In this document: positions 1 through 41,226 of the stretch, one piece after another
Position numbering within the stretch: the first letter of the stretch is position 1
How the letters are laid out: every line of letters begins with the position of its first letter
NCBI GenBank assembly: GCA_964016885.1
Contig: CAXHJY010001275.1
Location: 1 to 49,403 of the forward strand
Source of the DNA: Eledone cirrhosa
Lineage: Eukaryota
Reading direction: 5' to 3'
DNA: 49,403 nucleotides
The notes under the pieces: model-generated
Database searches by the model: none
The model's input: only the letters and a program-made list of their open reading frames with translations
Told to the model about the DNA's origin: nothing
Program-made: the position numbers and the translations under genes

Positions 1-1064
1 AGCTCGAAAGGAAATATTCCTGAGCCGTGTATAAAAGTAATATATATGAGTAATATATATGTTGAAACAGATACCAACATATCTGTATTTATATTGCAAA
101 AGAAAGTTAGCCAGACTGAAGAATATTAATTATTATACCACAGTTCGTCCACATCGATTTAAAATAATAATAATAATAAATCGACAAAAACTAGTTGTGC
201 TGCCAAATGGCAATGATGTTTATACATATTTAAATTTCAAAGTCAAACCTGTTCAGTAGATAAGTTTAAACCTCAAAATCCAAACATGTTTCGAGATGGA
301 TATAAGTGTAGGAATATCATGCCACTGCTCTCCTCAGTAAACATCCAGAGACAATTGATAAGCTTCACTTCTAAATAATTTAAAAGACTGTGTGACGCAC
401 ATGGGTTCACAGATTCAGGCTAGTCTCATAACCGTACTGCTAGAAATAACAGTCGTATATATGAGGCGAAATTTAGCTCGACGAAGAGCCGTTATATTAA
501 GTGTAAGGAATTCTTTTACAATGGAATTAGCTCGAAAGGAAATATTCCTGAGCCGTGTATAAAAGTAATATATATGAGTAATATATATGTTGAAACAGAT
601 ACCAACATATCTGTATTTATATTGCAAAAGAAAGTTAGCCAGACTGAAGAATATTAATTATTATACCACAGTTCGTCCACATCGATTTAAAATAATAATA
701 ATAATAAATCGACAAAAACTAGTTGTGCTGCCAAATGGCAATGATGTTTATACATATTTAAATTTCAAAGTCAAACCTGTTCAGTAGATAAGTTTAAACC
801 TCAAAATCCATGGATTTTGAGGTTTAAACTTATCTACTGAACAGGTTTGACTTTGAAATTTAAATATGTATAAACATCATTGCCATTTGGCAGCACAACT
901 AGTTTTTGTCGATTTATTATTATTATTATTTTAAATCGATGTGGACGAACTGTGGTATAATAATTAATATTCTTCAGTCTGGCTAACTTTCTTTTGCAAT
1001 ATAAATACAGATATGTTGGTATCTGTTTCAACATATATATTACTCATATATATTACTTTTATAC
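1..1064. mobile_element. Retrozyme-like / PLE-derived non-autonomous element: 528-bp partial tandem (1-282 = 529-810) plus a 254-bp inverted copy (811-1064 mirrors 557-810); runs off the left edge of the window
   Basis: Direct repeat with period 528 (identical 66-aa ORFs at 59 and 587); palindrome axis at ...aaaatcca|tggatttt... (810/811); ends with (ttttatac) slippage into (TA)n; HHR motif on the minus strand. Confidence 0.75.
274..346 (-). ncRNA. Type I hammerhead ribozyme candidate
   Basis: Minus strand: CUGAGGA (337-331), stem II GAG/CUC with a long insert, GAAA (292-289), palindromic stem III A-CAUG-U, GUU triplet with cleavage between 283 and 282; stem I is wobble-rich (GUUUA/UGGAU). 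Confidence 0.7.
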
Positions 1065-1071
1065 TTTTATA

Positions 1072-1121
<50 letters not shown>

Positions 1122-1128
<7 letters not shown>

Positions 1129-4677: not shown

Positions 4678-5122
4678 AGAGAAAGAAAAAGAGTGAGAGT
4701 GTGTGTGTGTGTCTGTGTGTGTGTGTGTGAAAATCTAGTTTATTGTCATAAATGGATAATATAGTAAATATATTGCAAATATCAGAAATATATGCACCAC
4801 AGTCAGTGTTGCAGCATATGTACAAACGTTATTGGCATAGGGTACAATCAAGATGGCGAGGCCCTAGTCTTCTTTTCGATATCTCGTCAGATATGCGACT
4901 GTATATGTGCAAAGACACACCAAAACTGTTGACAGAGGTCCAGGGTTTGCTTTTATGAACTTATTAGAGGGTGGGGGAGGGAGTAACAATAGGTTTATAT
5001 TTAAAGGGTGAAGGATAAAGAAGAAAGGATAAAAAATATAAGTAAAGAAAGTAAAAAAGTAAAAATACAAAAAGGTAAAAAGTAAAAAAATGCTAAGAAG
5101 GAGTGAAAAGATTAACAAAATT

Positions 5123-22268: not shown

Positions 22269-22680
22269 CGCGAAAACACTATACATATTTCAATGGCCCA
22301 GTTTCATAATCCGATCATGATGTAAGACTTAGGCGATTTCGTCAGGTGTTGATTGCAGAATTTGCCATTACAATAACACCGAATTGGCAAGCCATCACCG
22401 AACCAAATCTATCTTCTAATTTCTATTCTCCTTTTGTGTTCGGCGTAATCCTGTTATCTTATATAACTAATTCTGCAATCAACACCTGACGAAATCACCT
22501 AAGTCTTACATCATGATCGGATGATGAAACTGGACCATTGAAATATGTATAGTGTTTTCGCGGAACATATCATGTATCCCTATTTTATCTGATGAAAACG
22601 CAAATATCATCCCATGATGATATTTGTTTTTGAAATGCGCATAATAAAATACTTGGAACTCTTTTAACCATCTTTTGATC
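22269..22680 (+). mobile_element. Fold-back non-coding element with 94-bp inverted arms (22269-22362 / 22469-22562) and two HHR motifs, ending at (TA)n
   Basis: Arms nearly identical; CTGACGA...GAAA at 22486-22529 and a canonical HHR at 22581-22651. Confidence 0.65.
22581..22651 (+). ncRNA. Type I hammerhead ribozyme, canonical core
   Basis: Stem I UAUUUUAU/AUAAAAUA (8 bp perfect), CUGAUGA 22589-95, 16-bp stem II (one mismatch) with loop CCAU, GAAA 22632-35, palindromic stem III A-UGCGCA-U, AUA triplet with cleavage after 22643. Confidence 0.85.
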
Positions 22681-22756: not shown

Positions 22757-23705
<949 letters not shown>

Positions 23706-38474: not shown

Positions 38475-38534
38475 TCTAGTGATTTCGGAGCAAATCCTCT
38501 TTCTTCAAAGAGGATTTGCTCCGAAATCACTAGA
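38475..38534. repeat. Perfect 28-bp hairpin (loop CTTC) upstream of the PLE
   Basis: tctagtgatttcggagcaaatcctcttt / aaagaggatttgctccgaaatcactaga. Confidence 0.9.
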
Positions 38535-38596
38535 TTTAAGGTTGAAAGCAGCGATTCTTTGCTTAAACTTTAATCTGTTATTTTAATAAATATATA

Positions 38597-39982
38597 TCTT
38601 TCGATGTAGTGAATCTCTACACAACGATCCCACACCAATACGGACTAGAAGCAATAGGATTCTGGCTAGAGAAATATCCCAATGAGATACCTGACAGAAT
38701 AGAAAAAAGCTTCATCACCGAGGGATTAAAATTCATCCTACAGAACAACTTTTTTGATTTCGATGGCAGTACTTACAGGCAAATATCGGGGACTGCGATG
38801 GGCACAAAAGCCGCTCCAACTTATGCCAACTTAGTCATGGCATACTTAGAAGTCCAGATATATGAACAGTCCAAATCAAAATACGGATTGAACTTCCACA
38901 AATATTTATCAGAGAATTGGAAACGCTACTTGGATGATTGCCTCATTCTTTGGTCCCACACACTCGACCAACTGAAGGATTTCAAAAACTTAATAAACGG
39001 CATCAATAACCACATCCAATTCACAATGGAATACAGCCAAGATCAACTCCCATTTCTGGACATCTTAATCACAAAAAAAGACACAAATATCGAAACTGAC
39101 ATACACTACAAACCAACAGATTCCAAACAATATCTGCTATTCACCTCCAACCATCCAAAGCACACGAAGACGAACATTCCTTTTAACCTAGCAAGAAGAA
39201 TTTGCACAATTGTCTCCAATTATGAAACGCGAAATAAAAGACTTCAAGAATTAAAGGAAATTCTACTTGAGAGAGAGTACCCACTATTACTAATAAATAA
39301 TGGAATAGAAAGGGCTAAAGCAATAGGCATTGATGAATTACGGAAACAGAAACAAATTCAAGGTACGTCCAATATTCTATCATATATCTCAACACACAAC
39401 CCAAGAAATGCGGAAGCTTACAACACTATTCACAATAACATCCCACTACTAAAACAAAACCCAAGAATGAAAAAAGCCCTTGAAACACACAAAATAATCA
39501 AAAGCAAAAGACAACCAAAATCACTGAAAACATTACTCACCAATGCCAAATTACCTACCACAAACCCACAACCAAGTATCAAAAAATGTGGTCGCTCTAA
39601 TTGTGGAACCTGCACTCACCTCATTGAAGGCAACACGTATACATTTAAATCAGGACAAAATTTTACTGTAAAAAATCACTTCACTTGCTCATCAAAAAAT
39701 CTAATTTATGCCATTAAATGTAAAGGATGCAATGAAGATTATATAGGACAAACTAAACTCACACTCAGAAACAGAATGACAGTTCATCGCCAACAATTAC
39801 GAGATCCAACCACGAGACAAATACCACTAAGTGCACATCTAGACATTTGCGCAAGTAATAAGACACCCAAATTCCAAGTCTTCCCATTTTACCTTTGCGC
39901 TAACAATACAACAGAACAAATGCGAATAAATAAGGAAAATATGTTTATTCAAAAATATAGACCAACATTAAATAAGGTTTAA
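38597..39982 (+). CDS. PLE reverse transcriptase (from motif A) + Cys-rich linker + GIY-YIG endonuclease; N-terminally truncated
   Basis: SFDVVNLYTTIPH, GTAMG..APTYANL, RYLDD, LPFLD, HYKPTD, CGRSNCGTC linker, NLIYAIKC..C...YIGQT...LRNRM..H; no stops over 461 codons. Confidence 0.92.
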   Translation, partial: SFDVVNLYTTIPHQYGLEAIGFWLEKYPNEIPDRIEKSFITEGLKFILQNNFFDFDGSTYRQISGTAMGTKAAPTYANLVMAYLEVQIYEQSKSKYGLNFHKYLSENWKRYLDDCLILWSHTLDQLKDFKNLINGINNHIQFTMEYSQDQLPFLDILITKKDTNIETDIHYKPTDSKQYLLFTSNHPKHTKTNIPFNLARRICTIVSNYETRNKRLQELKEILLEREYPLLLINNGIERAKAIGIDELRKQKQIQGTSNILSYISTHNPRNAEAYNTIHNNIPLLKQNPRMKKALETHKIIKSKRQPKSLKTLLTNAKLPTTNPQPSIKKCGRSNCGTCTHLIEGNTYTFKSGQNFTVKNHFTCSSKNLIYAIKCKGCNEDYIGQTKLTLRNRMTVHRQQLRDPTTRQIPLSAHLDICASNKTPKFQVFPFYLCANNTTEQMRINKENMFIQKYRPTLNKV

Positions 39983-40465
39983 TATACATTATGTCAACAC
40001 CACAATATGACATACACACACACACATAACACCTACTTTAGAAAATAAAAACCCGAACTAAATAAACCTTAAACATACGTTTGCACTGGCAATACAACAG
40101 CAAACACGAAAAAGTCAGGAAAATATGTTCATTCAAAAATATTCCTACTAAAGGAATCATTTTCCTACACACACACATACACACACACACTATATATATA
40201 TATATATATATATTCTCTTCATCTTAACATGCTAACCATACTCCCACACACATAACACCCATACACACACATAAAAACCCCCACACCTACAACACCCTCC
40301 CCATTTCTACTAATAGAACCACTTTCCTACACACATATATATATACACACACACAAAAAATATATATTCTCTCTATCTAACATACTCGCACACACACACA
40401 TAACACCCATATACACACACACACAACTCCCTCCCCCATCTCTACTAATAGAATCATCTTCCAAT

Positions 40466-40504
<39 letters not shown>

Positions 40505-41014
40505 AGCACACAAATAAACACATATCTTCAGTCTCAATAGAAAATCTGAACTCTGACACCTGAACTCTGACAGCTGGCCATATTCACTGAACCAGAACAT
40601 TTCTCCCAATCCCTTTTCCCTTGACCACTATCTCTCCATCGTCATAACATTCACTATAGACTACAGAATAGTTTTCCAAATAAGGGCGCAAAAATGTAAT
40701 GAAAACTTGTTCACGTGACAGCCAAATTTCATTTATAACCAACCAAAAAAAAGCCTTCGTGAGCCTCATTTTTTCAAGTAAAAAGAAATTCAAACACTCA
40801 TATATGAAAAAACAACCTGTGACAACCCCCCCCCTCTCTTATTTGAAGAACTATTGTAACGCGAACTGGCGCGAAATTTATTATAATTATTGACAAACCA
40901 ATCAAATTACTTCTCGAAAAACTTGGTTTTCGAGCCAGTTTTTCCATATAAAACAAGTAACATTTAGAGACCAACCAGATGTGAGAAAAACCACAGACCC
41001 TCCATCTCAACTCA

Positions 41015-41052
41015 CCTTTTGAAAAGCAGAAGAACTGCGAAACCGGTAAAGG
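41015..41052 (+). ncRNA. Minimal type I hammerhead ribozyme, U3-A8 variant, in the PLE 3' pLTR
   Basis: CCUU-UUGAAAA-GCAG-aagaa-CUGC-GAAA-CCGG-UA-AAGG: stems I and II perfect, palindromic stem III, GUA triplet with cleavage after 41048. Confidence 0.75.
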
Positions 41053-41183
41053 AACCAAATAAATATATATATTTTTAAAAAAATAAGACTTCAGTTGCAT
41101 TTTCGATTTCATCCCTTTTTCTTTATACTTCCACTCGTGTAGGACACCTCGGTTATTTTTCATTTTGTAAAAAAAAACCTCAC

Positions 41184-41226
<43 letters not shown>

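Follow-up and report, generated by a model that had tools for sequence, protein, structure and literature searches.

The closest described relatives of the repeat reported here are the metazoan non-LTR retrozymes, dispersed elements of low GC content that occur as monomers to multimers of a non-coding tandem unit, every unit bearing a type I hammerhead motif. They have been proposed to depend on Penelope-like elements (PMC7229834; Cervera and de la Pena, 2020), the mobilization by Penelope enzymes being put forward there as a proposal, without demonstration, and a more recent study bases its case for such mobilization on kinship between sequences and on their co-occurrence (Li, Clavereau and Pollet, 2026; 10.64898/2026.07.22.740005). 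The Neptune/Naiad Penelope-like elements form insertions composed of partial tandems and an inverted, 5'-truncated copy, with a tail at one end that derives from two internal reverse transcription start sites, and they use (TA)n targets (PMC8557442, Craig et al., 2021; PMC11167929, Frangieh et al., 2024). The general architecture of Penelope-like elements is described in PMC8557442, together with Chlamys elements such as MRC1, which are non-autonomous Penelope-like elements arranged in multiple head-to-tail copies. For a Penelope-like enzyme studied in vitro, two internal RT start sites were found, the gap between them equalling the tail, and both target strands were cut and extended; insertion did not need hammerhead cleavage and no RNA reads began at the hammerhead site (PMC11167929).

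The window analysed here is a whole unplaced contig of 49,403 bp from the genome of Eledone cirrhosa (assembly GCA_964016885.1, contig CAXHJY010001275.1), and a copy of such a repeat lies at its very start. Positions 1-282 and 529-810 form a direct repeat (spacing 528, identity 100%), while positions 557-810 and 811-1064 form an inverted repeat of 254 nt (100% identity, zero spacer) with its axis at 810/811, so the 528-bp partial tandem and the perfect fold-back noticed in the first-pass annotation were both recovered. Units are numbered here on the minus strand, with unit position 1 at window position 810. The left arm (1..810, minus strand) comprises a full unit and 282 nt of the next one; it is cut short because the contig starts there, and its outer end, expected at unit position 318, is lost. 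The 528-nt unit, delimited by two successive predicted cut sites, occupies 283..810 (minus strand). The right arm (811..1063, plus strand) carries unit positions 1-253 and stops at the short fixed site of the family, the inverted repeat being extended by one chance-matching base (1064). The last 8-mer of this arm (1056-1063) recurs twice (1064..1079, plus strand) before the (TA)n target tract (1080..1122), and these extra copies are likely to reflect repeated abortive initiation or slippage. At the blunt head-to-head joint (810..811) both arms start at unit position 1; bases from upstream of the cut site are retained in neither arm, and the letters at the joint match a predicted cleaved 5' end exactly, in line with the earlier claim that both arms begin at the predicted 3' cleavage product. 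A dispersed 100-nt repeat with many genome matches at 83-96% (1123-1222) adjoins the target tract, and neither an empty allele nor a duplicate of the flank was found among 40 candidates scored. The window copy is a very young insertion of a small non-coding repeat present at hundreds of sites in the genome.

At least 155 unit matches were obtained from 39 of 1166 candidates scored in the 3.0-Gb assembly, and exact motif counts gave 138 units of the young group and 599 older ones (more than 700 together). Full units measure 513-534 nt; the window unit has no ORF of 100 aa and a GC content of 33% (172/528). We mapped 62 loci (identity of at least 89%), picked from search listings as a non-exhaustive sample, and these contained 44 inverted joints, 42 without two duplicates, and 21 single arms. 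The earlier suggestion of a non-coding family that bears a hammerhead motif is supported, and the 42 distinct two-arm joints agree with its partial-tandem and inverted insertions of the Penelope type. Among the 41 two-arm insertions other than that of the window, an outer end lies at unit position 316-319 in 37 and at 253-256 in 33, with both present in 30 (hereafter the canonical insertions), and (TA)n-type tracts adjoin all 24 two-arm copies among those listed. The two fixed outer ends, 253 and 318, each lie immediately before a hairpin with a GCUC..GAGC stem: hairpin 1 (530..553, minus strand) follows the short start site (unit 253, window 558) by 4 nt, hairpin 2 (476..489, minus strand) follows the long one (unit 318, window 493) by 3 nt, and a 65-nt tail (493..557, minus strand) separates the two positions. 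Only two such stems occur per unit, 3-4 nt past both fixed sites, and they are kept across subfamilies with varying loops.

As a kind, the element is already known, namely from the non-LTR retrozymes and their proposed Penelope origin, and the family differs from each described system in particular features. Retrozyme units span 170-400 nt (PMC7229834) or 51-972 nt (10.64898/2026.07.22.740005) and carry canonical hammerheads with contacts between loops 1 and 2, whereas the 528-nt unit of the window has a minimal, weak hammerhead motif without an Rfam match; two-armed inverted insertions with two fixed ends and a hairpin at each start are not among the retrozyme features described in the consulted text of these papers. 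Unlike the Neptune/Naiad elements, the family has no RT/endonuclease ORF, its tail is 65 nt long (30-40 nt in those elements) and both of its arms can exceed one unit (5 of the 30 canonical insertions); the consulted text on Neptune/Naiad insertions does not mention joints that fall on the hammerhead site. Most Chlamys elements have no hammerhead, and they share their 3' sequence with a named partner (PMC8557442), whereas no partner was found for the window family. An LTR retrozyme (type III hammerhead in the LTRs, 4-bp target duplication) was rejected as a classification, given the type I order, the lack of an LTR pair and the (TA)n flanks. In the twin priming of L1 elements, two target strands prime two cDNAs and a 5' inversion results; in contrast, the priming sites of the present family are fixed and internal, and its arms overlap in sequence. 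The literature searched gave no description of the window family or of joints at a cut site (supplements, Repbase and Dfam lie outside this coverage), and the consulted part of a paper on Octopus vulgaris repeats reports active Penelope-like families with no mention of ribozymes or retrozymes (PMC13282606).

The minus strand of the unit contains a minimal type I hammerhead motif with predicted cleavage (278..342), composed of helix I (342-338 with 282-278), a CUGAGGA box (337-331), helix II (330-293), a GAAA box (292-289), a CAUG loop (288-285) and UU (284-283), followed by the predicted cut at 283/282. The annotation made at first pass had placed a CUGAGGA...GAAA-CAUG-UU motif on the same strand with the same cut, and this assignment was reproduced, CUGAGGA starting at 337 and GAAA-CAUG-UU at 292. 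Of five registers tried, only the cut at 283/282 gives a UH site plus helix I, which has 5 consecutive pairs (3 of them G-U) in this register only and for which no covariation was seen. The CUGANGA/GAAA/UH core stands in type I order, with the G10.1-C11.1 pair and a GAG/CUC base of helix II, and shuffling of the unit produced a comparable core in 14 cases out of 5000. The fold of the hammerhead has little stability (-1.9 kcal/mol vs. -17.5 for the local MFE), and local folding of the region is not better than that of shuffles (z 0.12). No Rfam model reached its gathering threshold in the window, and the motif is matched by none of the Rfam hammerhead models; with E relaxed to 10, noise and microRNA-like matches to the palindrome were all that appeared.

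The motif fits the minimal Penelope-type hammerheads, which share with it the core boxes, the G10.1-C11.1 pair, a helix I of 4-5 bp and a tiny helix III with a palindromic loop, and on these sequence features it is a putative ribozyme. Such minimal hammerheads cleave poorly in vitro, probably as dimers (PMC4209133, Cervera and de la Pena, 2014; for background on dimer cleavage, PMC6155905), and pairs of them on opposite strands, 100-700 bp apart, are on record (PMC4209133). They differ from the window motif in their long helix II (7-8 bp), which here consists of 3 firm pairs and a weak, bulged extension (-2.3 kcal/mol), and in that older subfamilies of the present family carry a non-palindromic loop. 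The palindromic loop 3 of the window's subfamily gives a dimer duplex of -9.0 kcal/mol, against +0.4 in older subfamilies, and the larger, older subfamilies have a CAUA loop (485 exact matches). In 79 rows from older subfamilies, in which overlapping loci are counted repeatedly, the first box reads CUGAGGA in 56, CUGAAGA in 7 and CUGAUGU in 6; position 7 of CUGANGA is G, A or U depending on the subfamily, and the U form also alters A9. CUGA is invariant in 7 representative units (mean identity 0.88), while the conservation of GAAA and UU is no evidence, since both served to cut the units.

The layout of the family is very probably the product of two-ended priming of the Penelope type. A Penelope-type RT-endonuclease would bind the GCUC/GAGC hairpins, whose role as a handle is conjectural, cut the (TA)n target and prime two cDNAs, at 253 and at 318, one per target strand; the assignment of two priming sites to two strands is drawn from the fixed ends and from the in vitro Penelope precedent. 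The usual template would be a circle or an uncut multimer with no end at the ribozyme site, on which cDNAs may stop anywhere, and the two cDNAs would usually be joined through microhomology. In the window, the template may instead have been a partly cleaved, linear multimer whose 5' end had been cut and whose site at 283/282 had not, so that both cDNAs ran off the cleaved 5' end (+1) and were joined bluntly. The left cDNA would have read through one intact site before stopping at +1, which is what such a template predicts. We judge the origin of the window joint from cleaved RNA 5' ends, the best of the readings considered, to be about evenly poised, the cleavage itself being a prediction. It is supported by the unique blunt joint, by an older copy that starts at position 1 (L159/L200) and by an excess of +1 ends in a Neptune-like element of the same genome; counting against it are the even distribution of inner ends, the weak fold, the non-palindromic loops of older subfamilies, the in vitro insertion by a Penelope-like enzyme that did not need hammerhead cleavage (PMC11167929), and the failure to find an autonomous partner with matching hairpins in the families compared.

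None of the 41 other two-arm insertions has its joint at the cut site. Their 82 inner ends are spread evenly over the unit (chi-square p 0.73), the nearest lying 5, 6 and 7 nt from position 1, and their joints show microhomology (32) or short inserts (9), which leaves the window joint as the sole blunt one among 42. Two of the 41 are symmetric, both at self-complementary spots (151/151 and 139/139), and a symmetric joint at exactly the cut-site base has a chance of 0.4-0.6% among 42, before allowing for the selection of coincidences. Genome-wide, a base other than T before position 1 is found in young units in the window's two arms only; among the 599 older units there are three, two of which are point changes and one a true +1 start. 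In this last copy, L159/L200, (TA)n gives way to the unit at position 1, with one base of ambiguity. About 730 units thus contain 3 ends exactly at +1, from 2 insertions, vs. about 0.7 expected by chance under rough assumptions. With no joint of 41 at the site, inner ends evenly spread and +1 ends rare, the cut site is therefore no hot spot of the family, and the check proposed in the first-pass annotation, whether other copies invert at the same base, gave a negative answer, no other match having been found genome-wide. That annotation had also held that random ends of other copies would speak against its reading; the inner ends are indeed variable, but the outer ends are fixed at 253/318. 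Perfect palindromes are unstable, and older 1/1 joints may for this reason have been erased. Four sequencing runs compared with positions 1-528 gave three joints among the matches listed, none of them 282/282; this speaks neither for nor against the joint, since contigs break at perfect hairpins, many rows lie beyond those listed and the read run among the four is a reduced-representation library from another sample. The L159/L200 insertion and that of L208 both lie in the (TA)n tail of one third repeat family, an instance of mutual tail nesting.

The explanation that survives best beside cleaved ends accepts the two-ended Penelope-type insertion but needs no cleavage: the joint would have come to lie at the cut site by chance, or through annealing of the 10-nt palindrome of helix III followed by loss of an 8-nt tip. 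The even spread of inner ends agrees with it, as do the two symmetric joints at local self-complementary spots, the use of the letters of the helix III palindrome at L096 (523) and L104-105 (524), and the fact that the coincidence was selected out of very many windows. It requires, however, a symmetric joint at one exact base, with the low chance given above, or an exactly symmetric loss of 8 nt; a 524/524 joint is absent among the 41, and the window joint is blunt whereas those 41 are not. We regard it as rather unlikely.

A fold-back is improbable. Here a single cDNA, on arriving at the cleaved 5' end, would have reversed direction and served as its own template for the right arm, as the first-pass annotation had proposed, and both the position of the joint at the predicted cut site and the nesting of the right arm, identical in sequence, within the left one would follow. 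The right arm nevertheless stops at the fixed site 253, where its terminal 8-mer is repeated, in agreement with priming at that position, and microhomology for turning back is absent. In 15 of the 30 canonical insertions the arm that ends at 253 exceeds the other in length, and in 8 of the 30 neither arm is contained in the other, so these arms cannot be mutual copies and folding back is not the mechanism of the family. Judged from the sequences of the arms, two separately primed cDNAs fit the family better. An assembly or library fold-back artefact is still more improbable: the element does lie at the very start of an unplaced contig of 49 kb, the assembly contains this joint only once and a second copy of the flank was missing from the 40 candidates scored, but a mirrored read would mirror the flank or pass 253, whereas here the right arm gives way to (TA)n at the fixed end, the left side runs on into more element, and an artefact has no reason to coincide with the predicted cut site.

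Several observations bear on the usual template, for which a circle and an uncut multimer fit alike. The arms of one insertion mostly share subfamily variants, and units inside young insertions are nearly identical and differ by private changes alone. Circular folding of the unit gave z -5.4 on the hammerhead strand and -3.4 on the opposite one (60 shuffles each). A search of sequencing runs for the unit returned no RNA run among the matches listed; one run of unspecified kind gave a single 536-letter contig that closes on itself, as a tandem array would also do. An RNA-editing signature was looked for and not found: of 76 private changes confined to single units, one is A>G and five are T>C. 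At locus L104-L105 (G000:C4:230480446-230492779) one arm holds about 23 units over 12.2 kb, and its recurring haplotypes indicate that it grew after insertion. This array is a satellite being born from a retroelement insertion, and arrays of this sort could supply multimer templates.

An autonomous partner with the same hairpins was not found, one Neptune-like family having been compared. RT/endonuclease matches adjoin no family copy in 117 loci scanned, the only two lying elsewhere in the flanks, and the family unit has no RT plus GIY-YIG ORF. A fragment of a different Penelope-type RT with an RYVDD motif (L122:2560-2900, minus strand) was rejected as the partner, because it lies about 1 kb off and is not joined to the unit. 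In the window itself, positions 38567-39982 encode an RT, a CxxxxCxxC linker and GIY-YIG, a layout described for Neptune/Nematis (PMC8557442), and by this domain order the element is probably Neptune-like. It forms part of a 5'-truncated copy (38567-41190, plus strand) of an abundant, very young element ending in (TA)n; a hammerhead motif of the U3-A8 type, a core variant described in PMC4209133, lies near 41015-41055, and a 25-bp hairpin stands ahead of the copy at about 38476-38534. All 150 matches scored are 99-100% identical, many of them in open frames of 775 aa, and on this similarity the element appears to be an active family in the genome. Full elements with an upstream ATG-initiated ORF occur at L195:3856-4925 and L194, and the 775-aa RT-endonuclease frame, lacking its own start codon, begins at an A-rich heptamer, a layout that suggests a frameshift between the two ORFs. 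The element shows the same two-end layout in (TA)n with a tail of 66 nt; the interior of this tail is not significantly similar to that of the unit tail (z 1.5; z 4.3 when end motifs are included), and GCUC..GAGC hairpins are absent from this one Neptune-like family, the only one compared. It is therefore an analogue and not a shown partner.

The pattern search for Neptune-like cut sites gave 891 matches, the first 100 of which were listed, all on C1; 60 regions were chosen by eye with most apparent point mutants left out, which undersamples positions -9 and -8. Among 50 events between -9 and +7, 8 of the 5' junctions fall at the element's own predicted +1 (3.0 expected, p 0.009; p 0.14 after correction for 16 positions). 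One of them is a 3/1 near-palindrome (L208), and five lie in A/T runs, two of these being direct duplications, so that microhomology or duplication could mimic the effect; as a trace of cleavage the excess is suggestive only. In small inverted Neptune-like insertions (L201-L260), a frequent starting point of the second arm lies 61-75 nt ahead of the predicted cut site on its upstream side, possibly at a transcription start or an RT stop.

Further ribozyme-like repeats accompany the family. An unrelated two-armed repeat in (TA)n (22911-23660; unit of about 525 nt, tail of about 110 nt) has hammerhead cores at 23041 (minus strand) and 23410 (plus strand). Hammerhead-like cores are also present at 22589 (plus strand), with a palindromic UGCGCA loop and within another inverted repeat (about 22300-22530) ending in (TA)n, and at 4890 (minus strand). 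A TA-then-GCUC..GAGCU hairpin recurs in unrelated flanking repeats at L044:5611 (plus strand), L088:1766 (plus strand) and L091:2713 (minus-strand count); the L044 repeat has two such hairpins, and those of L088 and L091 have hammerhead-like cores upstream.

A bolder reading, somewhat less likely than not, is that cleavage by Penelope hammerheads takes place in the germline and is recorded as a scar in the genome. Linear multimers that have been cleaved would serve as minor templates beside circles, and a dimeric RT, recruited by twin GCUC/GAGC hairpins common to several unrelated ribozyme repeats of this genome, would prime both strands; where both cDNAs run off the cut 5' end, a perfect palindrome would result. 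The joint is a single event, and it therefore hints at cleavage in vivo without proving it. The window family bears the footprint of the two Penelope start sites directly, and it offers a 528-nt template, with start sites defined at two positions and a hairpin as candidate for binding, which suit the existing in vitro system. The role of Penelope hammerheads is called unclear in the consulted part of PMC8557442. If the joint is a germline cleavage scar, it would be in vivo evidence on what these hammerheads do, and if the RT is recruited by the hairpins, the family would name the handle by which retrozymes borrow their enzyme.
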